A program made the translations under genes and the position numbers. A DNA stretch of 64,000 bases from Planctomycetota bacterium. Lineage in GTDB: Bacteria; Planctomycetota; MHYJ01; JACPRB01. Below, piece by piece: positions 415-18,200 of the stretch; position 1 is the first letter of the stretch; every line of letters begins with the position of its first letter. Location: NCBI GenBank assembly GCA_016190175.1, contig JACPRC010000202.1, positions 11,750 to 75,749 on the forward strand. Reading direction: 5' to 3'. The notes below the pieces were generated by a model that was not told the origin of the DNA, did not search any database, and saw only the letters and a list, made by a program, of their open reading frames with translations.

Positions 415-2286
415 TCATTTCCCTTCCAGCGCCTTGAGCGCCTTCTCGATGTCGATGCCGGGACCGAGGGGGGCGTCGTCGCCGAGCCCGCCCCCGAACA
501 TCATCCGCAGGAGTTCCTTCGGCTTCATCCCGAGGGCCGGAAGCGCCTGACGGAGGTTGGCTGCGACCTCGGGCGCGAAGATCGTGTCGAGCACGAAATC
601 CCCCGAGTCGTCCACCCCGAGGTCCTCGTCCCCGTGCGTCTCCTCGAACCAGCGGCGGAAGACCGCCTTCGCGCCGATCGCCTCGGTCCATTCCCGGGGA
701 GAGACGAGGCGGAAGCGGAACCGCGCGACCGCTTCGCGGATCGCCCCGTGCAGTCGCCCGTCGCCGAGCGACTTCCGGAGTTCGACGTAGGCGTAGGGGG
801 CCTTTCCGTAGACGAGTCCCGCGTACTCGATCGGCGAACGGAACGTCGCGGCATCGCGCAGGACCGGCCGGTCCGGACCGTCGAGAAGGCGGTAGAGCGC
901 ATAGTTCAGCTTCACGTTCATGTCCATCAGCGCCCGCGCCGCGGCCGCGCCGTGACGGTCCTCCATCGCCAGACCCGCCGCGTACTGCGCGAGCGGCTCG
1001 TCCAACGCGGGGCCGCGCCGGCTGTCCCCGCCGACGATGCCCGCGAAGTACTGGTGCGCCACCTCGTGCGCGACCGTGAACTCCAGCGCCGGATCCAGCG
1101 AGACCGCCGGCTTGTCCGAGTCGCCCGATGGCCCCAGCAGCTTCGCCAGCCCGCCCCACATCTTGAGGAGCGTCGCGAGCGGGCTCGTCGACTCTTCCGG
1201 CGGCCGATACAGCATCCCGGCGATCAGCACCATGGAGCAGAACTCCACCCCGCCCGCGCCGCCGACGAGCGAGGCTTCGACCACATCGAGTTCCGTGTAG
1301 GGATACGGGCCGAACCGCTTCTCGAACGACGCCAGCGCGGACGTCGCCGCGTCCAGCGCGGCCTTCCCGCCCCGCGCGTCCCGCTTCCGGAAGACGCTCG
1401 TCACGCGCGTCTCTCCGACCGTCCGGGACGCCCGTTCCAGGTCCCGGCCCGCGACGAGCACGAGGTCGCGAACCAGGGCGCCGGCGGACTCCGTCACCCT
1501 CGTCCCCTCCGGGCCGTCCGCAGGCGCGCCGTCGACGAGGTTGGTGACGATCGACAGGCCCGCGGGAACGGCGGTCCTGACGCGGAAGATCGCCACGCCG
1601 TTGTACGCGAGGTCGCCCACCCGCGCGGGAAGCCCCGTGTCGAACTCCCCGTCGCGGTACGGCGCGGCCATCGGGTACGCGCTCGCCATCGTGAGGAGGC
1701 CGTCCCCCTTCGCAAGCAGGCCATAGTCCGCGACGCCGACGGACCCGAGCGAACCCAGCGAGGCCATGCCCTGCGCGTACGGGTCGTTCGCGTTCGCCTG
1801 CAGCACGCGGAAGCGACCCGAGTAGCGCACGGCGAGCGTCACGCGTTCGCCGGGGGCGACCGGCTTCCCGAATCCCACGAGGACCATGCCCGGCCGGGCC
1901 GCCTCCCACCGGGACGCGGGCCCCTCGAGCGTCTCCACGGAGGACACGGCCATCGCGCCCGCTCCGGGCTGCGCCGAACCGAGATCGGCCGCGTCGTTCG
2001 GGTGGAGCAGGAGCGGCAGCTTCTCGATCGGTCGTCCGGTGAGATTCGCGTACCGCAACGTCATCCGGGCGGAGAAGGTCCCCGTCACGTCGTCCACCGC
2101 CTGGCGGATGTCGTAGAGCGGCAGGTCTTCGAGGCGGCGGATTCCGAGATGCCGTTCGATTCCGTCCCGAGCCTCGGGCCGCAAGAGTTCCAGGCCCGGC
2201 ACCTCGTCCGTCGCGGGCGGCGCCGGCGGGCGCGGGAGCGCGCATCCGATCGTCAGGGAAAGCGCCAGCAGGGCCGCATTTCGCAT
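415..2286 (-). CDS. Lipoprotein zinc metallopeptidase (HEXXH gluzincin, M1-like aminopeptidase family)
   Basis: Start at MRNAALLALSLTIGC (signal peptide plus LTIGC lipobox; M115 of ORF 415..2628). Contains the HEVAHQYF zinc-binding motif. The ORF N-terminal extension overlaps the divergent gene and is rejected. Confidence 0.6.
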   Translation of the reverse strand: MRNAALLALSLTIGCALPRPPAPPATDEVPGLELLRPEARDGIERHLGIRRLEDLPLYDIRQAVDDVTGTFSARMTLRYANLTGRPIEKLPLLLHPNDAADLGSAQPGAGAMAVSSVETLEGPASRWEAARPGMVLVGFGKPVAPGERVTLAVRYSGRFRVLQANANDPYAQGMASLGSLGSVGVADYGLLAKGDGLLTMASAYPMAAPYRDGEFDTGLPARVGDLAYNGVAIFRVRTAVPAGLSIVTNLVDGAPADGPEGTRVTESAGALVRDLVLVAGRDLERASRTVGETRVTSVFRKRDARGGKAALDAATSALASFEKRFGPYPYTELDVVEASLVGGAGGVEFCSMVLIAGMLYRPPEESTSPLATLLKMWGGLAKLLGPSGDSDKPAVSLDPALEFTVAHEVAHQYFAGIVGGDSRRGPALDEPLAQYAAGLAMEDRHGAAAARALMDMNVKLNYALYRLLDGPDRPVLRDAATFRSPIEYAGLVYGKAPYAYVELRKSLGDGRLHGAIREAVARFRFRLVSPREWTEAIGAKAVFRRWFEETHGDEDLGVDDSGDFVLDTIFAPEVAANLRQALPALGMKPKELLRMMFGGGLGDDAPLGPGIDIEKALKALEGK

Positions 2287-2395
2287 GGGTCTTCCTCCAA
2301 TCGGGATGTTGGACGCTCCCGGCCGCCCGCGGGTTCCCGGAACGGATGCGCCGCGCCGCGTGTTACAGTTCCGTGTTCGATTCGGAGGGCCGACG

Positions 2396-4771
2396 ATGCG
2401 CGCGTTCTCGCTTCTTCTGTTGCTCGGTTCGACTTTCGTCCCCGTCCCGGCCGCGGGAGGCCCCGACCTCGTCTCCGACGCCTCGCAGTACGACGGCCAG
2501 CCCGCGCTCGCCGTCGACGCCGCCGGCGCGCCGTGGGTCGCGTGGGTCGGGTTCGCGAAGGACAAGGGCGACCAGGTCTTCTGCGCCCGGCGCGCGGACT
2601 CCGGCTGGTCCCGCCCCGTCGCCGTCACGACGAAACCCGGGAACTACGTCCGCCCCGCGATCGCCTGCTCGGGCGAGACGGCGCACGTCTTCTGGACCGC
2701 CACGACCGAGGAGAAGACCTCGATCTGGATGTCGCGCTGCGCGGCGGGGAAATGGTCCGAGCCCGCGCGCGTGTCGCCCGCCGACGGCTATCACCAGAAC
2801 CCCGAGGCCTGCGTCGATCCGCAAGGGCGGGTCTGGCTCACGTGGCAAGGGTTCGTTCGCGGCAACTACGACATCTTCCTCGCCTCGTTCGACGGCGCGC
2901 GGTGGTCCGATCCCGCGACCGTGACCGCCGATCCCGGCAACGACTGGGACCCCGCGATCGTGTGCGACTCGACGGGCAAGATCACCGTTGCGTGGTGCTC
3001 GTTCCGGGAGGCGGACTACGACCTCTACCTGGCGTCGTACGCCGACGGGAAGCTGTCCGGCGAGACGCGCCTGAGCGATCACGGCGGCTATGACCTCCAC
3101 CCGTGGCTCGCGGTGGACGCGAAGGACCGCGTCTGGTGCGCGTGGGACCGCATCGCCATGCCGTACCACGGCGACTCCGGCGGCACGATGGAGGACCGCG
3201 ACCGGAGCGGCGAGCGCAAGGAGCGGCCGAAGGCGGAGATCGTCCTACGCTGCTTCGACGGATCGAAGTTGCTGCGTCCCGTGCGGGCGCTCCCGGATCT
3301 CCCGAAGGGCTACACGCTCCAGCACTGCGGTTACCCGAAGATCGCGGTCGATCGCGCCGGGACCGTGTTGCTCTTCCATCGCGCCCTGATGCACGAGGCG
3401 GGAGGGAAACCGAGGGAGCGGCGCGGGACGGGCTACTGGTGGGACGTGATCGCGACGCGACTCGACGGCGACCGCTGGAGCGCGCCCCTCGTGCTGGAGA
3501 AGAGCGACGGCTATCTCGAGGAACCCGCCGTCGGCCTCGGCGCCGACTCCGTCTGGATCGCGTACCAGATGGAGCACCGCGGCCTGCCGGACGACGACGA
3601 CGACGGGGACCACCACGTCGGGATGAGGCCGCTCGGCGAGAACGGCGACATCTACGTCACGAAGCTCGCCGCCGGGCGCGCCGCGGAACCCGCGCTGGAG
3701 GCCGCGCCCGCGCTCTCGAAGGAGCCGAGCGCGCTCTCGAGGCGATTCGTCCCCCGCAGCGCGGCGAAATACGAGATCGAGTACGGCGGCACGAAGTACG
3801 CCGCCCTCTTCGGCGACCTCCACAAGCACTCGAACATCTCGCGCTGCTCGTCGGGCACCGAACCGTCGCTCGACGACCACTACCGCTACTCGCACGACGT
3901 GTGCCGCTACGACTTCATGATGATGTCGGACCACTCGCAGCACACGACGGACTTCAACTGGTGGAAGCTCCAGAAGAGCGCGGACCTCTACTACATCCCC
4001 GACTACTTCGTGACGCTGTTCGGTTACGAGGCGTCGAACCGCCACCCGATCGGCCACCGCAACATCGTCTTCCCGGCGCGGCCCGCGCCCATCATCCGCA
4101 GCACGCTCGACGGCGGCCGGACGGGCCGCGAGATCTGGAAGGCCCTCGACGGCGTGCGCGCGATCACGATCCCGCACACGTCGGCCGACCCGGGCATGGG
4201 CACGGACTGGCGCGAGCACGACCCGAAGTTCGAGCGGCTCGTCGAGATCTTCCAGGCCTGCCGCGGCTCCTACGAGTCCGACGGCTGCCCCCGGCAGCAC
4301 TCGAAGGCCACCGCGAAGGGCGGCTTCGTGCAGGACGCGCTCGCGAAAGGCTACAAGCTCGGCATCATCTCCTCGACCGACCACGGCTACGGCGTCTCGT
4401 ACGCGATCGTCTACGCGAAGAGCGCAACGCGCGAGGACGTCTTCGACGCGCTCTACAACCGGCGGTGCTACGCCTCGACGGCGTACGGGATCGTCCTCGA
4501 CTTCCGCGCGGACGGGCACCTCATGGGCGAGGAGATCGCGACGGACAAGGACGTCGCGCTGTCGGTCTTCGCGCGCGGCTACGCGAAGATCCGGAGCGTC
4601 GAGATCATCCGCGACGGCAAGGTCGCGCACTCGTGGAAGCCGGAGCGGGCGGAGGCGAAGTTGGAGTGCCGCGACGACGCGGCGAAGGGCGCGCACTACT
4701 ACTACGCGCGCGTCATTCTCGAGGACGGCGAGATCGCGTGGTCGAGCCCGGTGTGGGTGGACGTCAAATAG
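2396..4771 (+). CDS. Secreted protein: Asp-box (BNR-like) β-propeller N-domain plus C-terminal PHP-domain-like metal-dependent phosphoesterase
   Basis: Start MRAFSLLLLLGSTFVPVPAAG (signal peptide; M38 of the ORF). Repeated xDGxRWSxP Asp-box-like motifs (ADSGWSRP, AAGKWSEP, DGARWSDP, DGDRWSAP). C-terminus has GDLHKHSNISRCSSG...DFMMMSDHSQH, resembling the PHP DLHxHS motif. Confidence 0.5.
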   Translation: MRAFSLLLLLGSTFVPVPAAGGPDLVSDASQYDGQPALAVDAAGAPWVAWVGFAKDKGDQVFCARRADSGWSRPVAVTTKPGNYVRPAIACSGETAHVFWTATTEEKTSIWMSRCAAGKWSEPARVSPADGYHQNPEACVDPQGRVWLTWQGFVRGNYDIFLASFDGARWSDPATVTADPGNDWDPAIVCDSTGKITVAWCSFREADYDLYLASYADGKLSGETRLSDHGGYDLHPWLAVDAKDRVWCAWDRIAMPYHGDSGGTMEDRDRSGERKERPKAEIVLRCFDGSKLLRPVRALPDLPKGYTLQHCGYPKIAVDRAGTVLLFHRALMHEAGGKPRERRGTGYWWDVIATRLDGDRWSAPLVLEKSDGYLEEPAVGLGADSVWIAYQMEHRGLPDDDDDGDHHVGMRPLGENGDIYVTKLAAGRAAEPALEAAPALSKEPSALSRRFVPRSAAKYEIEYGGTKYAALFGDLHKHSNISRCSSGTEPSLDDHYRYSHDVCRYDFMMMSDHSQHTTDFNWWKLQKSADLYYIPDYFVTLFGYEASNRHPIGHRNIVFPARPAPIIRSTLDGGRTGREIWKALDGVRAITIPHTSADPGMGTDWREHDPKFERLVEIFQACRGSYESDGCPRQHSKATAKGGFVQDALAKGYKLGIISSTDHGYGVSYAIVYAKSATREDVFDALYNRRCYASTAYGIVLDFRADGHLMGEEIATDKDVALSVFARGYAKIRSVEIIRDGKVAHSWKPERAEAKLECRDDAAKGAHYYYARVILEDGEIAWSSPVWVDVK

Positions 4772-4848
4772 ACCCCCAGCGCCATTCCTGAACCGCGGAT
4801 TCAGCGGCGAGAATCCAGCGGAGGCCGGAGCGGGTCGGCGCTAACCCG

Positions 4849-5068
4849 GCCTATTCAGGGAGGTTCTCGGCCGCAGGCCGAGAACTCGTGAATAGGCCGC
4901 CCGCGGCGCCACCCTGACGAGCAATAGTGCGCCGCGGGCCGCCCGTCGCGCGAGACACGGAGTGTCGAGCGCGATGGAGCGGGGTTGTCCAGCGGAATCG
5001 GCCCGCGGGGCCGATGGAACTGCCCGGAGGGTGCCTTATTCATCCGGGCGGCGGAGCCCGGATGAATA
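4849..5068. terminator. Two GC-rich stem-loops between convergent genes (candidate bidirectional terminators)
   Basis: 4849-4900: gcctattcagggaggttctcggcc/ggccgagaactcgtgaataggc, about a 20-bp stem. 5038-5068: cttattcatccgggc-ggcgga-gcccggatgaataag, a perfect 15-bp stem. No U-tract, as expected at this GC content. Confidence 0.4.
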
Positions 5069-5075
5069 AGTCAGG

Positions 5076-6662
5076 CTAACCGCACCCCTCCGGGAGTTCC
5101 AGACGCGCGAGCGGAATGGGAGGATCGTCGCGGTGGCGCCACTCCGCGGTATGGAGATCCTGCGCGTAGTCCGCCGCCCACCGCCGCCAGTTCTCGGCGA
5201 TGTCGGGGACCGCCCGGAGGAGAACGCCGAAGTCCTCCTCGCTCACCGTGGGCCCGAGCGTGATCCGGACCCAGCCCGGCTTCGCCGCGGCCTCGCCGCG
5301 ATCGAGCGCCCGGCGGATGGCCTCCGATTCCTCGCGCTCGATCCCCAGGAGATCATGCCCATAGGTGCCCGCGCACATGCAGCCTCCGCGCACCTGGATG
5401 CCGTAGAGGTCGCTCAAGAGGCGCACCGCGAGATGGTGGTGCACGCGACCGCCGTCCAGGATGACCGAGAGGATGGCGAGGCGCTCGGCTTCGAGGGAGC
5501 CCAGGATGCGGATCTTCGGATGGTCTCGCCAGGCGGCGATGGCGCGCGCGACGTAGTCCTTCTCGATCGCCTGGATCCGGGAGACTCCGACGGCGCGCTT
5601 GAGATCGAATACGAGCCCCGCCCGGATGATCTGCACGATCGGCGGCGTCCCCCCTTCCTCGCGATGCTGGAGATCGTCGAGGTAGCGGTATTCCCATGGC
5701 GACGTGTAGAGAACCGTGCCTCCGCCGGGTTCGACCGGCGCGCGGTTCTGGAAGAGGGCGCGATTGACGAGGAGAAGGCCGGGGGTCTGCGGACCTCCCA
5801 GAAACTTGTGCATGGAGAGGAAGACCGCGTCTTTCCGAAGCCGGTCGTCGGGATCGGGCGGGTGAAGGTCCACGTCGACGTAGGGCGCCGCGGCGGCGAA
5901 ATCGAAACAGGCGTAGCCCCCGTGCTCGTGCATGACGCGGGCGAGGGCGTCGCAATCCGATCGGATGCCGGTCACGTTGGAGGCCGCGCTGAACGTGCCG
6001 ATCTTGAGCGGCCGATCGCGGCAGGACGGGAGCGAGAGCAGACGATCGAGGTCCCGCCAGTCGGGTCGGCCGTGCGCGTCGTAGCCGATCGTCTGGTTTT
6101 CGGCGATCGTCTCGCGCCACGGAAGATCGTTCGAGTGATGCTCCATGCGCGTGCGCACGACGAGCGGCCGCTTCTCGGGCGGGATGCGCTCGTCGAGACG
6201 AAGTTCCTTCGCCAGGGCATCGGCCACGCGAAGCCCGAGGATGCCGATGAACTTGTTCACCGCGCCCGTCGCGCCCGATCCGGTGAAAATGACGACGTCG
6301 TCCTCGCGGGCGTTCACCGCCTCCCGCGCCTTGCGGTGGGCCTCGTCCACCTGGGCGGTCATGAAGCGGCCCGTCGCGCTCGCCTCGGTATGCGTGTTCG
6401 CCATCATCGGGAGGATCGCGCCCCGGATGATATCTTCGATCGGGCCGAAGGGCAGGCCGGAGGCGGTCTGGTCGAAGTATCGCTTGCGCTGAGGGCCGTA
6501 GGGCGTGACGAAGCCGGTGTCGCGACCGATCACGTGATCGCGCATCCACCGGAGCACCGCATCCTTCGCGAGATCGAACGCCATCGGCCCGTCACTATAG
6601 TGGAATTCGCCCCTCCCGACAATCTCGAGTCCGCCGCAAAAAGTCTCTTCCTTTTCCCGCAT
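5076..6662 (-). CDS. Aminotransferase class V fold PLP-dependent enzyme (cysteine desulfurase-like)
   Basis: Start MREKEETF... The SMHKFLGGPQTPGLL PLP-lysine motif and overall length fit class V aminotransferases or cysteine desulfurases. The ORF-track extension to 8318 is antisense to the kinase gene and is rejected. Confidence 0.7.
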   Translation of the reverse strand: MREKEETFCGGLEIVGRGEFHYSDGPMAFDLAKDAVLRWMRDHVIGRDTGFVTPYGPQRKRYFDQTASGLPFGPIEDIIRGAILPMMANTHTEASATGRFMTAQVDEAHRKAREAVNAREDDVVIFTGSGATGAVNKFIGILGLRVADALAKELRLDERIPPEKRPLVVRTRMEHHSNDLPWRETIAENQTIGYDAHGRPDWRDLDRLLSLPSCRDRPLKIGTFSAASNVTGIRSDCDALARVMHEHGGYACFDFAAAAPYVDVDLHPPDPDDRLRKDAVFLSMHKFLGGPQTPGLLLVNRALFQNRAPVEPGGGTVLYTSPWEYRYLDDLQHREEGGTPPIVQIIRAGLVFDLKRAVGVSRIQAIEKDYVARAIAAWRDHPKIRILGSLEAERLAILSVILDGGRVHHHLAVRLLSDLYGIQVRGGCMCAGTYGHDLLGIEREESEAIRRALDRGEAAAKPGWVRITLGPTVSEEDFGVLLRAVPDIAENWRRWAADYAQDLHTAEWRHRDDPPIPLARLELPEGCG

Positions 6663-9686: not shown

Positions 9687-11126
9687 CTACGCTCCCTCCG
9701 GCCGCGCCACCCGGACGAGTTCGTCCGCAAACTCCTCGGCGGTCGCGTGCCGCTTCCGCGGGTCCTTCTCGAGTGCGCGCAGCACCAGGCGGTCGAACTC
9801 CGCCGGCAGCCCCGGCTGCCGCGAAGAGGGTCTCGGCGCCGGCGCGTTCACGATCTTCTGGTAGACCTCCATCGCCGTGGAGCCCGTGAACGGCACCTCT
9901 CCCGTCGCGACCTCGAACGCCATCACGCCCAGCGCGTAGATGTCGGAGCGCGGGCCGACCGTGGACGTGTTGCCCTCGACCTGTTCCGGGGACATGTAGA
10001 ACGGAGTGCCCAGAAAGGACCCCGTGCGCGTCAGCATGGTCGCGCCGCCCATCGTCTTCGCGAGTCCGAAGTCGAGGACGAATGCCCGCCCCGTGCGGTC
10101 GATCATGACGTTCCCCGGCTTCACGTCGCGGTGGACGATCGAGGCCTGGTGCGCGAAGTGGAGGGCGCGGGCCACCTGGCCCAGGATCCGCGCACCCTCG
10201 CGGAGACCGATCCGGTTCTGCCCGAGGAGCGCGTCCAGGCGCTCCCCCTCGATCCAGTCCATCGCGATGTAATGAAGTCCGCGCTCCACGCCGACGTCGT
10301 GGACGGCGACGATGTTCCCGTGCCGCAGCGAGGCGGCCGTCCGCGCCTCGCGGTAGAACCGCTTCACGCCGGTCTCGTCGGCCCCTTCCCCGCGGAGGAC
10401 CTTCACCGCCACGATCCGCCGGAGATCGCGATGGCGCGCCTTGAACACGACGCCCATCCCGCCGCGGCCGATCTCCTCGAGGATCTCGTACCGCCCGAGA
10501 ACCTCGCCCGGCTCGACCTGCGGAGCGGGGCCCGCCCCGAACGGCGTGACCGCCGGCTGCCCCTCCGCGCGCACGGTCGCCTCGATCTGCGTCGTGGTCA
10601 CGCCGAGCGGGCCGCCGCATACGGAACAACGGGGATCCTGGGGAGTCGCGCCCTCGTAACGCGTGCCGCATTTCTCGCACCGGAGGAGGGATCGTTCCTG
10701 CAGCTTCAGGATCTCGAGGAACCGCTCCGTCGACAGGTACCTCCGGCGCACGAGGATCTGTCCGATGGCGATCTTCGCCCCGCGCGCGGACGCCTCCTGC
10801 AGCTCGGCGATGCACTCGTCCAATTGGGCGGCGGTGATGTACCCGCGCGCGACCGCGAGCTGGCCGAAGAGATCGATCTTGCGCGCCGTCGTCACCCGGC
10901 CCGCCGGCCGCGACGGCGGCGGCGTCCATCCCCCCAATTCGAGGTACCGCTGCTTCTGCACCTCGATCACGCGGCTCACCTGCTCGAAGGTCATCGCCCC
11001 GCGCTCAAGGAACTGCTGCCCGAGCGGCTTGGACGATCCGGACCGCGCGCAGCCATCGATGTCCGCGGCCGTCACGAAGCCCAGCTCGACGGCGATCTCC
11101 GCGAACTGACGTTCTCTCGCGTCCAC
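9687..11126 (-). CDS. Ser/Thr protein kinase with N-terminal T2SSE_N-like repeats and a zinc ribbon
   Basis: GTG start (V42 of ORF 9687..11249) with aggacg SD. N-terminus has GFVTAADIDGC / GYITAAQLDEC helical repeats and a CEKC...CSVC zinc ribbon. Kinase motifs GRGGMGVVFKARH...VAVK, HRDVKPGNVMI, DFGLAK, TPFYMSPE. Convergent with the upstream kinase (10-bp gap). Confidence 0.7.
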   Translation of the reverse strand: MDARERQFAEIAVELGFVTAADIDGCARSGSSKPLGQQFLERGAMTFEQVSRVIEVQKQRYLELGGWTPPPSRPAGRVTTARKIDLFGQLAVARGYITAAQLDECIAELQEASARGAKIAIGQILVRRRYLSTERFLEILKLQERSLLRCEKCGTRYEGATPQDPRCSVCGGPLGVTTTQIEATVRAEGQPAVTPFGAGPAPQVEPGEVLGRYEILEEIGRGGMGVVFKARHRDLRRIVAVKVLRGEGADETGVKRFYREARTAASLRHGNIVAVHDVGVERGLHYIAMDWIEGERLDALLGQNRIGLREGARILGQVARALHFAHQASIVHRDVKPGNVMIDRTGRAFVLDFGLAKTMGGATMLTRTGSFLGTPFYMSPEQVEGNTSTVGPRSDIYALGVMAFEVATGEVPFTGSTAMEVYQKIVNAPAPRPSSRQPGLPAEFDRLVLRALEKDPRKRHATAEEFADELVRVARPEGA

Positions 11127-11230
11127 GTTGCGTCCTCGACCCGCGCATCCCGCCCTTCCTATTATAGCACGGGCCGCCGCGGCCGCATGGCTCCCGCCCC
11201 GTGGTTTCGGTCTCCCCCTCCCCCGTCCGC

Positions 11231-11263
11231 ACCAAAAGTTGACTGTCAACTTTTGGTGTGCTC
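11231..11263. promoter_or_regulatory. Near-perfect 33-bp AT-rich palindrome (candidate operator) in the divergent kinase / oxidoreductase intergenic region
   Basis: gcaccaaaagttgac-t-gtcaacttttggtgtgc. Flanked by CT-rich tracts (ctccccctctcc x2) and a TACAAT -10-like hexamer about 20 bp upstream of the korA-like ATG. Confidence 0.5.
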
Positions 11264-11320
11264 CCCCTCTCCTTGTCTCCCCCTCTCCCTTTCGGCTACA
11301 ATTCCCCCGTGCCCCTCTTC

Positions 11321-12406
11321 ATGGACGGCTGCGAGGCCGTCTCGCTCGGCGCCATCCACGCGGGCTGCACGTTCTTCGCGGGCTATCCCATCACCCCCGC
11401 CAGCAGCATCCTCCGCCGCATGATGGAGATGCTCCCCGCCGCGGGCGGCGTCGCCGTCCAGGGCGAAGACGAGATCGCCTCCATCGGCTTCTGCATCGGG
11501 GCCGCGATGACCGGCGCGAAGGCGATGACCGCGACGAGCGGGCCCGGCATGAGCCTCTACAGCGAGAACATCGGCCTCGCGATCATGGGCGAGGTGCCTC
11601 TCGTCATCGTGAACGTGCAGCGCATGGGCCCCGCGACGGGGGGCGCGACCACGACCGCCGAGGGCGACGTCCAGTTCTGCCGCTGGGTCACTTCGGGCGG
11701 CTACCCGCTCGTGGTCTATGCGGCGACGAACGTCGCGGACGCCTACCGCCTCACGATCGAAGCGTTCAACACCGCGGAGCGGCTGCGTACGCCCGTGATC
11801 CTCCTCAGTTCCAAGGACCTGGCGATGACGTGCGAGACCGCGGACACAGCCGAGTTCGTGCGGCCGGCCCGCGTCACGCGCACGAGCGGCGACGGGGTAC
11901 CGTATGCCTTCCGCGAGTCCACGGACGTCCCGGGGTTCCTCGCCGTCGGGGGCGACCGCCTCACGCGCTTCACCGGCTCGATCCACGACGGGCGCGGAGT
12001 GATCACGTCGGATCGGAAGAAGATCGATCGCAAGCTGACGCACCTCCGCGACAAGATCGAGTCGCGCGCGGACGAGCTCGCGATCGTCCGCGAGGATCTC
12101 CAGGAGGGCGCCGAAACGGTCGTGATCGCCTACGGAGCGGCCGCGCGGGCGGCGCGCGAGGCGGTCCGGGACGCGCGTCGCGATGGCAAGCGCGTGTCGC
12201 TCCTCGTCCTCTACACGCTCTGGCCCACGCCGGTCGCCGCGATCCGGCGCGCCCTCGGCGGCGCGAAGCGGGTCGTCGTCCCCGAACTCAACACGGGCCA
12301 GTACCTCTGCGAGATCGAACGCTTCGCGGCGGGCCGGGAACTCGTCCCGGTGCAGCGGATCGACGGCGGCCTCCTCACGCCCGCCGCGCTGGAGGCCGCT
12401 CTATGA
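11321..12406 (+). CDS. 2-oxoacid:ferredoxin oxidoreductase, alpha subunit
   Basis: Start MDGCEAVSLGAIHAGCTFFAGYPITPAS (M22 of the ORF). Conserved OFOR alpha N-terminal and TPP-proximal motifs. Stop overlaps the next start (ATGA). Confidence 0.7.
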   Translation: MDGCEAVSLGAIHAGCTFFAGYPITPASSILRRMMEMLPAAGGVAVQGEDEIASIGFCIGAAMTGAKAMTATSGPGMSLYSENIGLAIMGEVPLVIVNVQRMGPATGGATTTAEGDVQFCRWVTSGGYPLVVYAATNVADAYRLTIEAFNTAERLRTPVILLSSKDLAMTCETADTAEFVRPARVTRTSGDGVPYAFRESTDVPGFLAVGGDRLTRFTGSIHDGRGVITSDRKKIDRKLTHLRDKIESRADELAIVREDLQEGAETVVIAYGAAARAAREAVRDARRDGKRVSLLVLYTLWPTPVAAIRRALGGAKRVVVPELNTGQYLCEIERFAAGRELVPVQRIDGGLLTPAALEAAL

Positions 12407-13689
12407 ACCTGATCGACCCCGAAGAACTCCCCTACCCTTTCTGCCCCGGCTGCTCCCACGAGCTGATCTTCAAGTCCCTGGCGGCCGCGTTCGAGAAGAG
12501 CGGCCTCGACGCGCGGCGCGTCGTCGTCGTCAGCGACATCGGATGCCACGGCATTGCGGACCGGATGCTCCGGACGCACACGTTTCACGGTCTCCACGGG
12601 CGGTCGCTCACATACGCCGCCGGCATCAAGCTCGCGAACCCGTCGCTCAAGGTGGTCGTCCTCATCGGCGACGGCGGGTGCGGCATCGGCGGTGCGCACC
12701 TCGTGAACGCGGCGCGGCGCAACGCCGGGATCTGCGCCGTGGTCTTCAACAACTTCAACTTCGGGATGACGGGCGGGCAGCACTCGGTCACGACGCCCTG
12801 CGGCGGGCGCACCGCGACGACGCCGAAGGGGAACGCCGAGCGCGGGCTCGACCTGTGCCGCCTGGCCGACGCCTGCGGCGCGAACTTCGTGGCCCGCACG
12901 ACCGCCTTCGACCCCGCGCTCGTGGACGTCCTTGCCGACGGGATCGCCCACGACGGATTCGCGTTCCTCGACATCTGGGGGCTCTGCACGGCCTACTACA
13001 TGAAACGGAACGACCTCCGGAAGGCGGAGCTCGTCGACACGGCGAAGAACATGCCCGGATACGGCGTCCTGCGCCGCGAGTCGCAGCCCGAATGGGCCGC
13101 GTCGCAACCGAAAGGATCGGCGCCGGAGCCGCGACTCGACGCGAACGAGATCCCCGTGCTCTTCCGGGCGGAGCTGAAGGAACCGCTGCGGGTCGTCCTG
13201 GCGGGCAGCGCCGGGATGAAGGTGCGGACGGCGGCCTCCCTCCTCGCGAGCGCCGCGATCCTTTCCGGCCTGCGCGCCGCGCAGAAGGACACGTTCCCGG
13301 TCACCGTGACCAAGGGATTCTCCCTCTCCGAACTGATCGTCTCGCCCGAGCCGATCGAAGACCTCGAGATCGTCCTGCCGGACTGCCTCGTGATCTCTTC
13401 CGAGGACGGGCTCGACAAGACGAAAGCCCTCGTCCCGCTCGCGCGCCGGGTCGTCGCGAAGCGCGGGCTCGACGTCACACGCGATGATGCGACGCTCGTA
13501 GACCTGCCGGGCGTGCGCCCGGCCGAGCTGACGCTTGCGATGACCGCCCCGCTCCTGCGCGACGCGATCCCCGCGGAGGCGATGCGCGAGTCGGTGCTGC
13601 GGTTCGGCCACGTGGAAGAACGGGAGCGCCTTCTCGCGGCGGTCGGGAACCCGGCCGCCGCGGAGGGCGTCACAAGGAGGACAACATGA
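12403..13689 (+). CDS. 2-oxoacid:ferredoxin oxidoreductase beta (TPP-binding) subunit with a C-terminal gamma-like domain fused
   Basis: MNLIDPEELPYPFCPGCSHE...GDGGCGIGGAHLVNAARRNAGICAVVFNNFNFGMTGGQ (TPP-binding beta). C-terminal about 180 aa (LAGSAGMKVRTAASLLASAAILSGL...) resembles the OFOR gamma domain. ATGA overlap with the downstream gene. Confidence 0.65.
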   Translation: MNLIDPEELPYPFCPGCSHELIFKSLAAAFEKSGLDARRVVVVSDIGCHGIADRMLRTHTFHGLHGRSLTYAAGIKLANPSLKVVVLIGDGGCGIGGAHLVNAARRNAGICAVVFNNFNFGMTGGQHSVTTPCGGRTATTPKGNAERGLDLCRLADACGANFVARTTAFDPALVDVLADGIAHDGFAFLDIWGLCTAYYMKRNDLRKAELVDTAKNMPGYGVLRRESQPEWAASQPKGSAPEPRLDANEIPVLFRAELKEPLRVVLAGSAGMKVRTAASLLASAAILSGLRAAQKDTFPVTVTKGFSLSELIVSPEPIEDLEIVLPDCLVISSEDGLDKTKALVPLARRVVAKRGLDVTRDDATLVDLPGVRPAELTLAMTAPLLRDAIPAEAMRESVLRFGHVEERERLLAAVGNPAAAEGVTRRTT

Positions 13690-14603
13690 AATGGACGCTC
13701 GCCGCGGCCGCGACGCTCGCCGCCGCGGTGCTCTTCGTGCTCGGCGTGCGCGCGTGGCGGGCCCGCCGCCGTCCCGGATGGCGCGGCGAATTCGTCCTCG
13801 CCCTCTCGGCGGCGCTCGCGATGTTCGCCGGCGCCTCCGCAGGCGAACCGGCGAGACAGGAGGATCCCGCGGCGAAGGACCTCGAGACGCGCGTCAGGGA
13901 CGTGGAACGCGACTCCCGCTGGAAGCAGATGCGCAAGATCTTCCGCAAGCTGGCCGCGCAACTCGAGTCGAAGGATCCCGTCGCCGGCGATCCGACCGCG
14001 GAGACGAAGGAGCTCTCCGGGAAGATCACTCCCCTCGATCTGCGGGAGCCGCAGAAGGCGGACGCCCCGCTCCTCTCGCGCGAGGAGGCGCTCGGCGAGT
14101 GCCTCAAGTTCCTGGGCAGCGTCGCGTTCCACGTCCACCGCACGAAGGGCGAGGGCCGGCGCTGGACCTGCTACGACATGGCGATGCCCCGGTCGAGCGA
14201 GCACCTCCCGGCGCAGCAGGCGCTCCTCAAGAAGCAGTACGAGGAGGGCAAGGTCTCGAAGGAGGTCTACGAGCGCCTCACGAAGGTGTTCGGCGAAGTG
14301 ACGGGGATGCAATCGCTCCTGCCGTTCCTCAACGCCCGCAACACGGCGCTCGTCTTCCGCCTCATCCGCGACATGGCGGGGGCGCGGGCGATCGAGATCC
14401 CGAAGATCTCCCCCGAGGTCGAAAAGAAGATCGGCGATCTCATCGAGCAGCTCGGCGCCGACGAGATCGAGAGACGCGACGACGCGCACAAGGCGCTGAT
14501 CGAGATCGGCGAGGGAGCCATCCCGCAGCTCAAGAAGGCGCTGGAACACAAGAGCGCCGAGGTGCGGGCCCGCGCGAAGATGATCCTGGAAGAACTGGAG
14601 TGA
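13686..14603 (+). CDS. Membrane-anchored hypothetical protein with conserved Cys pair and C-terminal HEAT-like repeat (paralog 1 of a tandem pair)
   Basis: N-terminal transmembrane segment then RRRPGWRGEF. Conserved ALGECLKFLGSVAFHVHRTKGEGRRWTCYDM. C-terminal IGEGAIPQLKKALEHKSAEVRARAK (HEAT/PBS-like). About 65% identical to the next gene, with near-identical DNA stretches. Confidence 0.55.
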   Translation: MKWTLAAAATLAAAVLFVLGVRAWRARRRPGWRGEFVLALSAALAMFAGASAGEPARQEDPAAKDLETRVRDVERDSRWKQMRKIFRKLAAQLESKDPVAGDPTAETKELSGKITPLDLREPQKADAPLLSREEALGECLKFLGSVAFHVHRTKGEGRRWTCYDMAMPRSSEHLPAQQALLKKQYEEGKVSKEVYERLTKVFGEVTGMQSLLPFLNARNTALVFRLIRDMAGARAIEIPKISPEVEKKIGDLIEQLGADEIERRDDAHKALIEIGEGAIPQLKKALEHKSAEVRARAKMILEELE

Positions 14604-14607
14604 GACC

Positions 14608-15540
14608 ATGAAATCCGTGACGCTGACGATCGTCGTCGGCGCGGCCTTCGCCGCGGCGGCGCTGCTCCTCCTCTTCGGCATCCGCACGATGCGGCCGCGG
14701 CGCCGTCCCGGATGGCGCGGCGAGTTCCTCCTCGCGCCGACGGCGGCGCTCGGCTTCCTCTCGGGCGCCGGCGCGCCCGCGCGGATCGCGGCGCAGGAGG
14801 ACCCGGCGGAGAAGGACTTCGAGGCGCGCGTGAAGGAGGTCGAGAAGGACGCTCGATGGAAGAAGATGCGGAAGTTCTTCCGGGAGCTGGCCCGCGACTT
14901 CGCCGCAAAGGGGACGATCCAGCACGACCCGCAGGTCGCCGCCGAGGAGGCGACGTCCGGCATCAAGGTCGAAGCGATCAAGGAACAGCAGAAGGAGGAC
15001 GCGAAGCTCCTCGACAAGGAAGCCGCGCTCGGCGAGTGCGCGAAGTTCATCGGGGCCGCGGCCTATCACCTCTGGCGCACGAAGGGCGCCGGACGCGAGT
15101 GGACCTGCTACAAGATGGCGCTGCCCGAAAGGAACCCGCACGTCCCCGAGCAGCGGGCGCTCCTGAAGAAGCAGTACGAAGAGGGGAAGATCTCGCAGGA
15201 GGTCTACGAGCGCCTCACGCGGGTGCTGGACGAGATGGACCAGTTGCAGCGCGTGATGGCGATGCTGAACGCCCGCAACACCGCGCTCGTCTTCCGCCTG
15301 ATCCGCGACATGGCCGGCTCGCGCGCGGTCGACATCCCGAGAATCTCCCCCGAGGTCGAGAAGAAGATCGGCGAACTCATCGAGCAGCTCGGGGCGGAGG
15401 AGATCGAGAAGCGGGACGAGGCGCAGCACGCGATCCTCCAGATCGGCGAAGGCGCGATCCCGCAGCTCAAGAAGGCGCTGGAGCACAAGAGCGCCGAGGT
15501 GCGCGCGCGCGCGAAGCTGATCCTCGACGAGCTGGAGTAG
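14608..15540 (+). CDS. Membrane-anchored hypothetical protein, paralog 2 of the tandem pair
   Basis: Same architecture: RRRPGWRGEF, ALGECAKFIGAAAYHLWRTKGAGREWTCYKM, and a C-terminal IGEGAIPQLKKALEHKSAEVRARAKLILDELE identical to paralog 1. Starts 5 nt after the paralog 1 stop. Confidence 0.55.
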   Translation: MKSVTLTIVVGAAFAAAALLLLFGIRTMRPRRRPGWRGEFLLAPTAALGFLSGAGAPARIAAQEDPAEKDFEARVKEVEKDARWKKMRKFFRELARDFAAKGTIQHDPQVAAEEATSGIKVEAIKEQQKEDAKLLDKEAALGECAKFIGAAAYHLWRTKGAGREWTCYKMALPERNPHVPEQRALLKKQYEEGKISQEVYERLTRVLDEMDQLQRVMAMLNARNTALVFRLIRDMAGSRAVDIPRISPEVEKKIGELIEQLGAEEIEKRDEAQHAILQIGEGAIPQLKKALEHKSAEVRARAKLILDELE

Positions 15541-15542
15541 CC

Positions 15543-16652
15543 GTGACCGTCGTAGATCGCATCAAGCGGTGGCTCATCCCCGAGCGCCGCGAATCCCTCA
15601 TCGTCGAGGTCACGCCGCGCTGCAACCTCGAGTGCCTCTACTGCTACAACGTGTGGAAGGGGTCGCACCCGTATCCGAAGGGCGAGCTCGACACCGCGGC
15701 CATCTGCCGCCTCCTCGACAAGGTGATCCGCGAGACGCGCTGCCGCCACGTCACGCTCACCGGCGGGGAGCCGCTTATGCGCAAGGACCTCGCCGAGATC
15801 GTCCGCTTCGTGCGCGGGCGCGGCCCCGAGGTCAACGTCATCTCGAACGGCACGATGCTCACCGAGGCGCGCGCCGCGGAGCTCGTCGACGCGGGAGTCT
15901 CGCTCTTCGAACTGCCGATCCTGAGCGGCGACCGCGAGGTGCACGACGGGCTTGTCCTGCGGAAGGGCTCGTTCGATCGCGTGGTGGAAGCGATCTCGTG
16001 GATCAAGGTCCAGCGCGGCCGCGTGGTGTGCGTCTTCGTAGGGACGCGACGCAATCTCCCCGGTCTTGCGGGCGCGATCGAGCTCTCGATCGCCCTCGGC
16101 GCGGACGGCGTGATGCTCAACCGGTTCAACCCGGGAGGCGAGGGCGCGCGGCACCTGGAGGAGTTGCTCCCCGGCCGGGACGAACTGCGCACGGCGCTGG
16201 CGGAGGCGGACCGGCTCGTCGCTCGGTACGGCGTCCCGATCGCCTGCTCGATCCCGATCCAGCCGTGTCTCGTCGACCTCGCCGAGTTTCCGCATCTCGG
16301 GTTCGGCTTCTGCGCGGCGGGGACGGAGCGGGCGTACTACACGATCGATCCGCTCGGCAACCTGCGCGCGTGCAACCACACGCCGACGATCCTGGGGAAC
16401 CTCTTCGACGCGCCGTTCGACCGGCTCGCCCGCAGCCCCGGCGTGAGCGCGCTCGCGGACGGAGGTCCCGAGTCCTGCGCGGGCTGTTCGATGCGCCGCG
16501 TCTGCCGCGGCGGCTGTCCCGCGGCGGCGGAGGCGTGCGCGGGAAGCGCGACGTGCGCGGAGCCGTTCCTCGGGCGGCACGCGGGCGTACCGCGTCCCGC
16601 GCCGGAGGAACTGGCGCGGCGGACGGCGGGGGCGCGGCGCGGGGCGGATTGA
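15543..16652 (+). CDS. Radical SAM enzyme with C-terminal SPASM domain (peptide/protein-modifying maturase family)
   Basis: GTG start 3 nt after the upstream stop. Cx3Cx2C radical SAM cluster CNLECLYC. C-terminal Cys-rich SPASM-type motif CAGCSMRRVCRGGCP plus further Cys residues. Confidence 0.75.
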   Translation: MTVVDRIKRWLIPERRESLIVEVTPRCNLECLYCYNVWKGSHPYPKGELDTAAICRLLDKVIRETRCRHVTLTGGEPLMRKDLAEIVRFVRGRGPEVNVISNGTMLTEARAAELVDAGVSLFELPILSGDREVHDGLVLRKGSFDRVVEAISWIKVQRGRVVCVFVGTRRNLPGLAGAIELSIALGADGVMLNRFNPGGEGARHLEELLPGRDELRTALAEADRLVARYGVPIACSIPIQPCLVDLAEFPHLGFGFCAAGTERAYYTIDPLGNLRACNHTPTILGNLFDAPFDRLARSPGVSALADGGPESCAGCSMRRVCRGGCPAAAEACAGSATCAEPFLGRHAGVPRPAPEELARRTAGARRGAD

Positions 16653-16692
16653 GCTCCTTGTCGGCGCCCTGAGGTCGGTGTATCATCGTGCC

Positions 16693-16899
16693 ATGGAGTT
16701 CACGGTAGTCGTCACCCGCGAGGAAGGCGTGTACAACGTCTCGGTCCCGTCCCTCCCGGGCTGCCATACCTGGGGCAAGACGAAGCAGGCCGCGCTCAAG
16801 AACGCGAAGGAAGCGATCGAGTTGTACATCGAGTCCCTGACGGCCGCCGGCGAACCGATCCCCGCGGAGGAGAGTCTGCACAGGGTCCGCGTCGAGTGA
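16693..16899 (+). CDS. hicB: Type II toxin-antitoxin system HicB-family antitoxin
   Basis: MEFTVVVTREEGVYNVSVPSLPGCHTWGKTKQAALKNAKEAIELYIE: UPF0150/HicB fold signature. Alternative GTG start at 16678. Confidence 0.65.
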   Translation: MEFTVVVTREEGVYNVSVPSLPGCHTWGKTKQAALKNAKEAIELYIESLTAAGEPIPAEESLHRVRVE

Positions 16900-17114
16900 G
16901 GCCGAAGCCGTCTCGTCCGGCGGAGGTGGAGCACGTGGCTCGACGGCTCGGCTTCGTCTTCGAGCGATCCAAGGGTTCGCACAGGCTGTACCGCCATCCG
17001 GAGGGCCGGCGAGTCGTCATCGCGTTTCATCCCGGGACCATCCCCGTTCCGACGCTGAAGCGGATCATCGCCGACTTGGGGATCTCCGTCGAGGAGTTCA
17101 ATCGGACGGTGTGA
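16896..17114 (+). CDS. hicA: Type II toxin-antitoxin system HicA-family mRNA interferase toxin
   Basis: GTG start overlapping the hicB stop (GTGA). Sequence RSKGSHRLYRHPEGRRVVIAFH matches the HicA KGSH motif. Confidence 0.7.
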   Translation: MRPKPSRPAEVEHVARRLGFVFERSKGSHRLYRHPEGRRVVIAFHPGTIPVPTLKRIIADLGISVEEFNRTV

Positions 17115-17168
17115 GGGTCTCCCCATCGATTCCGTTCGCAGTCCCCGCTCCCCGATCTACCAAGGAGC

Positions 17169-18200
17169 GTGGAGCAGCGAACGCCGGTCGGCCGCGCGCG
17201 CGTCGCCGCGCAGCTCGCGCTGTACGTCGCCCTGGCCGCGCACGTCGGCGCCTGGTATCTCGGCGGCCGCCGCGAGGTCGGCACCGTCTCGGCCGCGAGC
17301 GTCTTCTATCTCCTCCAGGTCGGCCTCGTCAACGCGGGGGCGCTCCTCGTGGGCGCCGCCCTCCTCACCACGCCGCTCCTGGGCAACGCCTTCTGCGGAT
17401 GGGCGTGCCACTTCGGCGCGCTCCAGGACTTCGCCGGGTGGGCGCTGCGCAAGGTCGGCCTCCGGCCGCTCGGCTGGCACGTTCCGGCGCGCATCCGCGC
17501 GCTCCTCTTCGCGAAGCTCTTCGTCCTCAACACCGTCGCGGCGTGGTTCGCGCTCGGGAAGCTGCCGCGCCTCTTCGTGAACTGCGGCGCACCCGAGCCG
17601 CTGTTCGCGCTGGGGACCTGGCTCACCGTGGCGCTCGACGTGGGCGTCCTGGCGATCCTGTCCGTCTGGCTCTTCGGCCCGCGCGCGTTCTGCCGCGCCG
17701 CCTGCCCGGTGATCCTCGTCGCGCGGCTCGGCAATCTCGCGGCGCCGCTGCGCATGAAGCTCCGCGGGAATTGCATCGATTGCGGCGCCTGCGACCGCGC
17801 CTGCCCGATGGGGAACCCGGTCTCGCGGATGCTGAAGGAGGGAGGCTCCGTGGCGGCGCTCGACTGCGTCCGCTGCGGGCGATGCCTCGACGCGTGCCCG
17901 ACGGGCGCGATCGGCTTCGGCACCGCGCGCGGCGGGTCCTTCGCGGCGCCCGCACCCCGACGCGGCGGGGCCTGGGCGGCGCTCGCCGGAGGCGCGCTCG
18001 GCATCGTCCTGCACGAACTGCTGTTCCGCATGCGATCCGACGGCTCGCTCGCGGGCGCGTGGGTCGCCCACCTTCCCAACTGGGAACTCTTCTACGCGTT
18101 CCTCGGGCTCGCGCTCGGGGTCGCGATCCACCGTCTTCTTCGAGGAGGAAAACCATGCACGCTCTCGCCTTCGCGCTCGCGCTCGCCGCGGGCGGTCTGA
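17169..18200 (+). CDS. Polytopic membrane 4Fe-4S ferredoxin (NapH/MauN/NosR-like polyferredoxin)
   Basis: CGWACHFG and FCRAACP motifs typical of NapH-family N-terminal halves. Two ferredoxin motifs, CIDCGACDRACP and CVRCGRCLDACP. Several transmembrane segments. Confidence 0.6.
   Translation: MEQRTPVGRARVAAQLALYVALAAHVGAWYLGGRREVGTVSAASVFYLLQVGLVNAGALLVGAALLTTPLLGNAFCGWACHFGALQDFAGWALRKVGLRPLGWHVPARIRALLFAKLFVLNTVAAWFALGKLPRLFVNCGAPEPLFALGTWLTVALDVGVLAILSVWLFGPRAFCRAACPVILVARLGNLAAPLRMKLRGNCIDCGACDRACPMGNPVSRMLKEGGSVAALDCVRCGRCLDACPTGAIGFGTARGGSFAAPAPRRGGAWAALAGGALGIVLHELLFRMRSDGSLAGAWVAHLPNWELFYAFLGLALGVAIHRLLRGGKPCTLSPSRSRSPRAV

Follow-up and report, generated by a model that had tools for sequence, protein, structure and literature searches.

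A candidate protein-modification module that pairs a radical-SAM/SPASM enzyme with an envelope protein bearing a Thr-Cys-Tyr-x-Pro motif, in a planctomycete and in other bacterial phyla

A stretch of 64,000 nucleotides (nt) from the genome of a Planctomycetota bacterium (contig JACPRC010000202.1 of assembly GCA_016190175.1), referred to here as the window, contains a block of five genes in which two genes for a 2-oxoacid:ferredoxin oxidoreductase (OFOR) are followed by two paralogous genes, par1 and par2, and by the gene for a radical S-adenosylmethionine (radical-SAM) enzyme with a SPASM region. A sequence-only reading of this DNA had suggested that the whole block specifies a new posttranslational modification system, with the paralogs as tandem substrates and the OFOR as a possible electron supplier. 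The question raised by this locus is whether such a system exists and, if so, which of the five genes belong to it. Comparison with related loci indicated that the last three genes are a local version, in which the partner gene occurs twice, of a widespread two-gene module consisting of a radical-SAM/SPASM enzyme and an exported or anchored protein with a Thr-Cys-Tyr (TCY) motif, and that the OFOR is an ordinary two-polypeptide 2-oxoacid:ferredoxin oxidoreductase that is joined to this module in this lineage only. The genes of the block, from open reading frame (ORF) calls, and their parts are as follows.

11321-12406, + strand: OFOR alpha subunit, 361 amino acids
12403-13689, + strand: OFOR beta subunit with a gamma-like C terminus, 428 amino acids
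13686-14603, + strand: par1, 305 amino acids, a TCY-motif partner with an N-terminal hairpin (transmembrane helix, basic loop, transmembrane helix), a helical middle, a TCY loop and a HEAT-like tail
13689-13826, + strand: N-terminal hairpin of par1, with hydrophobic helix 1, the basic loop RAWRARRRPGWRGEF and hydrophobic helix 2, which ends ASA-G (signal-peptide-like)
14124-14306, + strand: conserved core of par1, AFHVHR...W-T-C-Y-DMAMP...QQALLKKQYEEGKVSKEVYERL
14166-14174, + strand: TCY of par1 (Cys162, Tyr163)
14418-14600, + strand: C-terminal pair of HEAT-like (alphaRep-type) repeats of par1, a widespread module and not peculiar to the system
14608-15540, + strand: par2, 310 amino acids, paralog of par1 with the same architecture
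14617-14766, + strand: transmembrane hairpin of par2
15061-15243, + strand: core of par2
15103-15111, + strand: TCY of par2
15355-15537, + strand: HEAT-like tail of par2
15543-16652, + strand: radical-SAM/SPASM enzyme, 369 amino acids, GTG start
15621-15644, + strand: CNLECLYC (residues 27-34), the CX3CX2C motif for the radical-SAM [4Fe-4S] cluster
16245-16538, + strand: SPASM region with eight Cys (C235, C242, C257, C277, C312, C315, C321 and C325, then C332), including CX2CX5CX3C

The radical-SAM/SPASM enzyme and its pairing with partner genes

The enzyme of the window matched the Pfam Radical_SAM model (6.1e-25), and its GTG start agrees with the NCBI call. At least 928 homologs were found at E<=1e-30, typically 50 to 57% identical to it and belonging to Chloroflexota, Planctomycetota and Phycisphaerae, and the complete set of radical-SAM and SPASM Cys residues is kept at this level of identity across phyla. 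All three Cys of the CX3CX2C motif were invariant in 22 homologs; in the homolog alignment C242, C257, C277, C312, C315, C321 and C325 were invariant as well, and C235 and C332 nearly so. The combination of CX3CX2C with a C-terminal set of 7 to 8 Cys that includes CX2CX5CX3C is the pattern of the SPASM superfamily, and the SPASM region is predicted from this pattern to hold two auxiliary Fe-S clusters. An AlphaFold2 (AF2) model of the enzyme (predicted local distance difference test score [pLDDT], 88; predicted template-modeling score, 0.88) retrieved SkfB, PqqE, SuiB and anSMEcpe with Foldseek at template-modeling (TM) scores of 0.64 to 0.70, with SkfB at the top (E 7.6e-15). The SPASM domain named in the sequence-only reading was thus upheld by the Cys pattern, by the fold and by the homologs, many of which match the Pfam SPASM model (PF13186), but that model misses the window protein itself.

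Among the models of Pfam (2025) and NCBIfam (June 2026), none was matched by the enzyme at its family cut-off. The best NCBIfam match was PqqE (TIGR02109), which extended over the full length at 111.5 bits against a cut-off of 381.35, and the second tier consisted of AhbD and NirJ at 85 to 90 bits (cut-offs, 500 and 515). PqqE was also the nearest sequence relative of solved structure (6c8v; E 3e-14 and 56 bits with the single sequence, E 7.1e-21 and 77.9 bits with the family profile). The possibility that the enzyme is simply a sulfatase maturase was examined on the same scores. The model of the anaerobic sulfatase-maturating enzyme (anSME) was not among the 25 best NCBIfam matches, the family profile reached only 44 bits against the structure of anSMEcpe, over residues 11-161, and none of the ORFs of the window showed a sulfatase signature; membership of that family was rejected, and anSME was kept as a mechanistic analogy. 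TIGR04133, the "rSAM with lipoprotein" family, was likewise rejected as the family of the Bacteroidota enzymes (44 to 63 bits against a cut-off of 425). No RRE domain is present in the enzyme, since only 26 residues precede the CX3CX2C motif.

A word-indexed search returned five close homologs of par1, which at first had the appearance of an orphan family; this was overturned by the genes that adjoin homologs of the enzyme in related loci (numbered L001, L002 and so on). In L001, from a second Planctomycetes metagenome-assembled genome (MAG), a par-like gene is followed after 3 nt by the gene for a 72% identical enzyme, with a CBM_21 gene upstream on the opposite strand. Contigs L003 and L002 (sample SRR33230280) overlap by 27 nt inside the enzyme gene and together give the order TPR/AhpC-TSA protein, par-like protein (298 amino acids), enzyme, par-like protein (305 amino acids) and transmembrane protein. 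Three long contigs encode an enzyme that is 49 to 57% identical; its immediate upstream neighbor had no Pfam match in any of them, and the product carries the core of par1, which in these distant partners reads ...H..R...[T/V]-C-Y-x-P... and, some 18 residues on, Q..LL.K...EGKI...VY.K. The L004 partner (Planctomycetes, 487 amino acids) contains two such core units and ends in a HEAT-like tail of the par type, and the L006 partner (Anaerolineae, 227 amino acids) begins SRRDFMK.

For a census of the pairing, an alignment scan for the enzyme in species-representative genomes gave 80 loci, in which the same-strand ORFs abutting the enzyme gene were listed and searched with a hidden Markov model (HMM) of the core motif; an HMM of the close family proved too narrow on the neighborhood ORFs and was replaced by the core-motif HMM and by reading of the motif. 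Where the enzyme was at least 43% identical and the flank was usable (L010-L019, L021-L025 and L028), an adjacent protein with the Cys-Tyr (CY) motif was encoded on the same strand in 17 of 18 loci, L020 being without one. At 28 to 38% identity, a CY-motif protein was adjacent in most loci (L027, L030, L031, L035-L042, L045, L048, L049, L052, L053, L059 and L063). None with the motif was found in a Chloroflexota group at 26 to 31% identity (L064-L072, L074-L078, L082, L084, L085 and L088), and L086 had one CY outside the motif. Among the remaining ORFs with a length of 80 amino acids or more, 10.7% contained the CY dipeptide, which serves as the background.

Carriers of the gene pair include Chloroflexota, Planctomycetota, Bacteroidota, Desulfobacterota, Kapaibacteria, Patescibacteria and Acidobacteriota, and overlapping or abutting partner and enzyme genes are frequent (L006, L017, L018, L030 and L036, among others). 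In all-against-all clustering of the neighborhood ORFs, only the enzyme and partner families recurred; no protease, transporter, PqqD or OFOR was found by this clustering as a recurring neighbor. Cooccurrence of enzyme and paralog-type genes in other genomes had been set beforehand as the check on the sequence-only reading, and the two were indeed paired in many genomes of several phyla. The tandem arrangement of substrates pointed out in that reading is no defining trait: most genomes have one partner gene, and in one close relative the enzyme gene is flanked by partner genes on both sides.

The partner proteins and the two paralogs of the window

The 48 partners that were read contain 69 CY sites, with the consensus [V/I]-[T/S/L]-C-Y-[E/D/A]-[P/M]-[M/A/V]-x-P; T stands at -1 in 39 of the 69 and P at +3 in 34, with V/I at -2 and E/D/A at +2. 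In a 16-sequence family alignment, Cys162 was invariant, and Tyr163 was conserved in at least 90%. The motif is present in one to three copies per partner, and in some partners it is repeated in linkers rich in Pro and Thr (L025 and L035; L037 also has two or three sites). Partners range from 110 to 570 amino acids (mean, 242), and apart from an N terminus for export or anchoring and the CY motif they have little in common.

The export devices differ among phyla. In Chloroflexota, RR[DEQ]F[MI][KQR] stands at the start of all 11 partners read, and TIGR01409, a model of the twin-arginine translocation (Tat) signal, recognized the L028 partner (24.6 against a cut-off of 16.7), with the L012 partner just below the cut-off. 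A module of transmembrane helix 1, basic loop and hydrophobic helix 2 can be aligned across partners from Planctomycetota, Bacteroidota and Desulfobacterota; helix 2 ends in a lipobox-like G/S-C in Bacteroidota partners and in ASA-G in par1. The C termini are similarly varied, with HEAT-like repeats in the window and in L004, helical domains in Chloroflexota and an unassigned domain of about 110 residues in a Bacteroidota family of 175 amino acids. Several Bacteroidales partners are TonB-like, with CY sites in the linker and a C-terminal TonB_C domain (L037, 5034-5765; L039, 3085-3978; L053, 3269-3970; L063, 3284-3841 and 4913-5569), and the L039 partner, from the cultivable carrier Dysgonomonas sp. 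Marseille-P4677, additionally has a CarboxypepD_reg domain. TonB_C is a periplasmic domain; therefore, the region after the anchor, CY sites included, would end up outside the cytoplasm. Pfam, NCBIfam and fold searches matched the partners to no family or fold other than the Tat signal, TonB_C, CarboxypepD_reg and the HEAT-like tail.

The paralogs of the window are 62 to 64% identical to each other (64% in BLASTP, E 3e-125) and matched the core-motif HMM at 9e-23 (par1) and 1e-24 (par2). At the N terminus of each, a strongly basic loop lies between two hydrophobic stretches; in par1, two hydrophobic windows were seen by hydropathy, and the AF2 model places helices at residues 2-27 and 32-47. 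No twin-arginine signal was detected in either paralog by TIGR01409 or PF10518, and the second hydrophobic helix is Tat-like by eye only. The model of par1 is all-alpha (mean pLDDT, 79.5), and the motif (residues 162-167) is a loop with pLDDT below 50 between confident helices at 132-159 and 174-186. Neither paralog reached the cut-off of any Pfam or NCBIfam family, and in the fold search no solved structure resembled par1 apart from its last 59 residues, which matched alphaRep structures with a probability of 0.99 and 36% identity.

This tail gave a subthreshold match to HEAT_2 in the last 50 residues only (18.3 bits in par1 and 15.2 in par2 against a gathering cut-off of 27.7); the relative P0129 passes at 42 bits. 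A full-library search with the close-family profile gave 3,367 matches, and most of the 150 best that were listed aligned only at profile positions of about 245 to 306, that is, in the HEAT-like tail, which is therefore a common module and no signature of the system. Upstream of the L004 partner, at 3976-5313, lies the gene for a secreted-looking protein of 445 amino acids with this HEAT-like module in its middle, the only place where the par family HMM matched it (1.5e-10), and in L034, from a Nitrospira MAG, a protein of 504 amino acids consisting almost wholly of PBS-lyase-type HEAT repeats (2223-3737) is encoded directly upstream of a truncated, 53% identical match to the enzyme.

The RRRPGWRGEF, ALGEC and WTCY segments are present in both paralogs, each of which has two Cys. 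RRRPGWRGEF had been described as invariant, and it varies in the family alignment. The Cys pair, likewise described as conserved, holds among the closest relatives only: the first Cys (that of ALGEC) is Leu in one of five close relatives (P0004), and the full-library profile search, which returned about a dozen full-length relatives of par1, found xCY in almost all of them and the first Cys in none. This leaves one conserved Cys, that of TCY, and not the pair, as the candidate site. The sequence-only reading had further described identical C-terminal repeats and stretches of near-identical DNA, and had taken these for recent duplication or gene conversion. In the last 97 columns of the alignment, however, the tails agree at 79% of residues. 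Nucleotide identity is 0.60 to 0.72 in the first three quarters and 0.84 in the tail, and it tracks amino acid identity; at identical residues, identical codons make up 0.63 to 0.77 throughout and are no more frequent in the tail, against 0.61 expected from codon usage, and the longest exact DNA stretch common to the two genes is 26 nt. On these figures, nothing points to a recent duplication or to gene conversion, and the paralogs appear to be old. A pair of paralogs at a like level of mutual identity (64%) is also present in a related genome.

The oxidoreductase genes and the flanks of the block

Both OFOR subunits contain the domains of their class. The alpha subunit matched the Pfam models POR_N (3.7e-52) and PFOR_II (3.3e-15) and has no gamma domain, and the beta subunit matched the thiamine-diphosphate-binding domain TPP_enzyme_C (4.8e-30), with a weak match to POR (gamma) at residues 275-339 (6.7e-4). 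Every NCBIfam score lay under its cut-off, so that neither subunit was assigned a substrate: the best match of alpha was NF006412 (371.8 bits against 411), and beta matched NF007207 (173 bits against 364) and, at residues 263-377, the gamma model NF006211 (1.1e-6). Pfam and NCBIfam scans found neither a delta ferredoxin subunit nor a ferredoxin gene in the operon. The domain layout is unusual in that alpha lacks gamma, a gamma-like domain is fused to the C terminus of beta and a delta subunit is missing. All-against-all clustering of the neighborhood ORFs and direct BLAST found an OFOR homolog in 0 of 89 other related loci, and both closest relatives carry the pair of par-like and enzyme genes without an OFOR and with other genes upstream. 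Because of this absence, the OFOR is regarded as a local neighbor outside the conserved module, and the role of electron supplier given to it in the sequence-only reading was not sustained. In L003, the closest relative with several paralogs, the gene for a TPR protein with an AhpC/TSA (thioredoxin-fold) domain (409-1479) lies 22 nt upstream of the par-like gene, in the place taken by the OFOR in the window.

The block lies in a region of about 70% GC, and its boundaries are those drawn previously, with a divergent Ser/Thr kinase ORF upstream (9687-11249, - strand) and hicBA and then a NapH-like polyferredoxin downstream. The genes are on one strand and tightly joined, as had been described, with ATGA overlaps between alpha and beta and between beta and par1; the gaps between par1 and par2 and between par2 and the enzyme gene are 4 and 2 nt, not 5 and 3 nt. 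The features around the block are as follows.

11230-11258: perfect palindrome of 14 + 14 nt with 1 nt between the arms (CACCAAAAGTTGAC / GTCAACTTTTGGTG), which covers the first 20 nt of the Ser/Thr kinase ORF just upstream of the OFOR operon
11273-11302, + strand: sigma-70-like promoter match TTGTCT-18-TACAAT directly 5' of the first gene, by consensus match only
16658-16686: sigma-70-like match after the last stop of the block and ahead of hicBA, by consensus match only
16678-16899: hicB-like antitoxin gene (HicB_lk_antitox, 1.9e-13) directly 3' of the enzyme gene
16896-17114: hicA-like toxin gene (HicA_toxin, 4.5e-15), the start of which overlaps the hicB-like stop
17169-18200: NapH-type membrane polyferredoxin (Fer4_5 and dicluster domains), about 500 nt 3' of the enzyme gene

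Within 11000-17300, three sigma-70-like matches were found against 0.1 expected in shuffled sequences, and none lies inside 11321-16652. The match at 11273-11302 is a possible promoter of the operon, and the palindrome could be an operator site. A Fer4_5 protein is also encoded in L004 (802-1782), about 5 kb upstream of the enzyme homolog, a parallel to the polyferredoxin of the window that is possibly coincidence. Toxin-antitoxin pairs flank the module in two unrelated genomes: hicBA lies downstream of it in the window, and in L006, an Anaerolineae contig, a MazE/PIN pair (5624-6204; also seen in L007) lies just upstream of the partner and enzyme genes.

Proposed mechanism, alternatives and relation to known systems

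Since the partners share only an export device and an exposed motif, and since the enzyme alone travels along with them, the simplest reading is that the two form an enzyme-substrate pair in which the CY site would be modified before export. From the enzyme class and the gene pairing, we consider it probable that the cytoplasmic, PqqE-like radical-SAM/SPASM enzyme modifies the adjacent envelope protein. The enzyme would bind the unfolded motif segment directly, before or during export, without an RRE or a PqqD-type helper; SAM would be cleaved reductively and a hydrogen atom abstracted within the motif; and a covalent change, with use of the auxiliary clusters, would be installed at the invariant Cys-Tyr, after which the modified partner would work in the periplasm or envelope. 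Modification before export would fit the Tat signals of the Chloroflexota partners, since Tat carries proteins matured in the cytoplasm. As to the chemistry, the preferred guess is a thioether-type crosslink from the Cys sulfur to a carbon, involving the neighboring Tyr or a downstream residue; it is favored because the Cys is invariant, because the fold relatives include enzymes that join sulfur to carbon and because the adjacent invariant Tyr is the residue on which PqqE acts. Even granted an enzyme-substrate relation, such a crosslink is a tentative assignment to which we would give somewhat less than even weight. The broader proposal, that this is a multiphylum protein-modification system, not previously described, which makes a covalent change at Thr-Cys-Tyr-x-Pro in anchored envelope proteins exported by Tat or Sec, with the transmembrane-basic-transmembrane module in place of a leader recognized by an RRE, seems to us evenly balanced. 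Full-text literature searches found no description of the pair, although their coverage was incomplete and absence is not proven.

Several observations weigh against this proposal. Adjacency proves linkage and not an enzyme-substrate relation, and we infer what lies beyond it, namely, the substrate role of the partner, the Cys as the point of modification and the chemistry. L020 encodes a 48% identical enzyme and has no adjacent partner. In five partners, encoded beside enzymes that are 35 to 38% identical (L043, 3068-3976; L044, 2826-3992; L047, 2988-3977; L050, 2774-3985; L051, 3059-3973), T-R-M-[M/I/V]-P replaces T-C-Y-x-P; these keep the downstream helix, and those of L044 and L050 also keep the transmembrane-basic-transmembrane module. 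The L047 partner contains no Cys at all, and P0137 has KCRMM in place of TCY. Either these branches carry out a different reaction, or the reaction of the whole family makes no use of the thiol. TIGR01409 does not recognize par1 and par2 as Tat substrates, and their topology rests on hydropathy and charge. In addition, a search with a 75-residue core profile, in which 397 candidates passed the word index, gave 2 matches and is no gauge of the size of the partner family.

Some of these observations would be explained if the partner were an accessory subunit anchored in the membrane, or if it received a small-molecule cofactor that the enzyme makes, with the His and Cys-Tyr residues as ligands or attachment points and with Tat export after loading. 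The Tat signals of Chloroflexota imply cytoplasmic folding or cofactor loading, the His about 13 residues before the Cys is kept in the close family and in Chloroflexota (YHVWR...TCY), AhbD and NirJ, which stand in the second tier of matches, are enzymes of heme pathways, and the Cys-free variants could be accommodated. However, most partners from Planctomycetota and Bacteroidota lack that His, the matches to AhbD and NirJ are of a strength that is generic among SPASM enzymes and fall far short of the cut-offs, and no further biosynthetic gene recurs in the neighborhoods. Moreover, the occurrence of two or three motif copies in evidently unstructured linkers, like the low-confidence loop of the par1 model, is unlike a cofactor pocket, and we consider this explanation unlikely. 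Formation of formylglycine by oxidation of the motif Cys, on an exported protein that is still unfolded, in the manner of anSME, would agree with the architecture of the enzyme, which resembles anSMEcpe in size, in its radical-SAM and SPASM parts and in the lack of an RRE (TM 0.66 to 0.70 over about 380 columns), and with protein-sized exported substrates in which the only conserved Cys belongs to a short linear motif and has Pro nearby. Here the motif itself is discordant, since T-C-Y-x-P is unlike C/S-x-P/A-x-R and has no Arg at +4; the invariant Tyr would go unexplained, multiple sites in linkers are unlike a catalytic residue, and some variants have no Cys. With no sulfatase fold or signature found in the partners or in the ORFs of the window, and with a sequence relation to anSME that is weak and confined to the N-terminal half, formylglycine formation is distinctly unlikely.

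The five genes could also form one dedicated pathway in which the OFOR reduces a ferredoxin that feeds the enzyme. Radical-SAM enzymes depend on a low-potential reductant, the stop codon of the beta gene overlaps the start codon of par1, which implies translational coupling, and there is no promoter-like site inside the block. However, tight gene packing is common in this 70% GC genome, the operon contains neither a ferredoxin gene nor a delta subunit, and the place of the OFOR, which has no homolog in the other loci, is taken in the closest relatives by the CBM_21 gene of L001 or the TPR/AhpC-TSA gene of L003; we regard this pathway as very unlikely. That the two genes are not functionally linked at all, their adjacency reflecting operon packing while the enzyme acts on an unrelated substrate, could be argued from L020 and from a case built on genes and not on experiment. 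Adjacency, mostly with overlapping or abutting codons, is nevertheless kept across at least six phyla while every other neighbor changes, and the anchor and motif are the only elements common to the partners, which makes the lack of a link exceedingly improbable. An enzyme-substrate relation between the radical-SAM/SPASM enzyme and its partner was consequently retained as the preferred reading.

If this relation is correct, a module of this kind occurs in hundreds of bacteria of several phyla, most of them anaerobic and uncultured, and a hydrophobic residue followed by T-C-Y-x-P next to a radical-SAM gene is a sequence signature that could be converted into family models for annotation. For the TonB-like partners of Bacteroidales, it may be speculated that the modification bears on outer-membrane transport.

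Among characterized systems, anSME is similar in being a cytoplasmic radical-SAM/SPASM enzyme of about 370 amino acids, without an RRE and with two auxiliary clusters (here predicted from the Cys pattern), that acts on a short linear Cys motif of a full-size, later exported protein, the role proposed here for the partners; the fold is likewise close (TM 0.66 to 0.70 to 4k36-4k39). It differs in its motif and in the sulfatase domain of its substrates, which the partners lack, and the genes described here are adjacent and coinherited, whereas anSME usually serves several dispersed sulfatases. PqqE is the closest relative in sequence, and the site on which it acts contains a Tyr, a residue that is invariant in the present motif. 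However, the enzyme scores far below the PqqE cut-off, no pqqA, B, C or D gene or PqqD-like helper was found in the block or in related loci, and an envelope protein of 110 to 570 amino acids with C-Y takes the place of the PqqA peptide of about 25 residues with E-x3-Y. QhpD, which installs Cys thioether crosslinks in QhpC, is again a radical-SAM/SPASM enzyme whose substrate is encoded alongside it and has a periplasmic fate. In contrast to that system, there is no qhpA, B, E or F context here, the partner has one conserved Cys instead of being a Cys-rich small subunit, and there was no curated match, QhpD being absent from the 25 best NCBIfam matches of the enzyme, with no direct comparison made.

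The synthases of sactipeptides and ranthipeptides (SkfB, CteB and PapB) are SPASM enzymes that join a Cys sulfur to a nearby carbon and whose genes abut those of their substrates. Unlike these, the present module has no leader and core peptide, no RRE, fused or nearby, and no recurring protease or exporter, and its partners are anchored envelope proteins with signals and folded C-terminal domains, not secreted peptides. Since neither the partner nor the enzyme reaches any curated-family cut-off, the earlier description of a candidate new modification system remains a fair reading, as does the more specific one, suggested by these comparisons, of a radical-SAM/SPASM maturase with an adjacent protein substrate outside any named family. 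To our knowledge, radical-SAM/SPASM enzymes are known mainly from ribosomally synthesized and posttranslationally modified peptides and from two protein cases, the sulfatases and QhpC. If the proposed relation is correct, this would be a third system with a protein substrate, and it would extend the chemistry to ordinary cell-envelope proteins that have their own motif and are modified without a leader-recognition domain.

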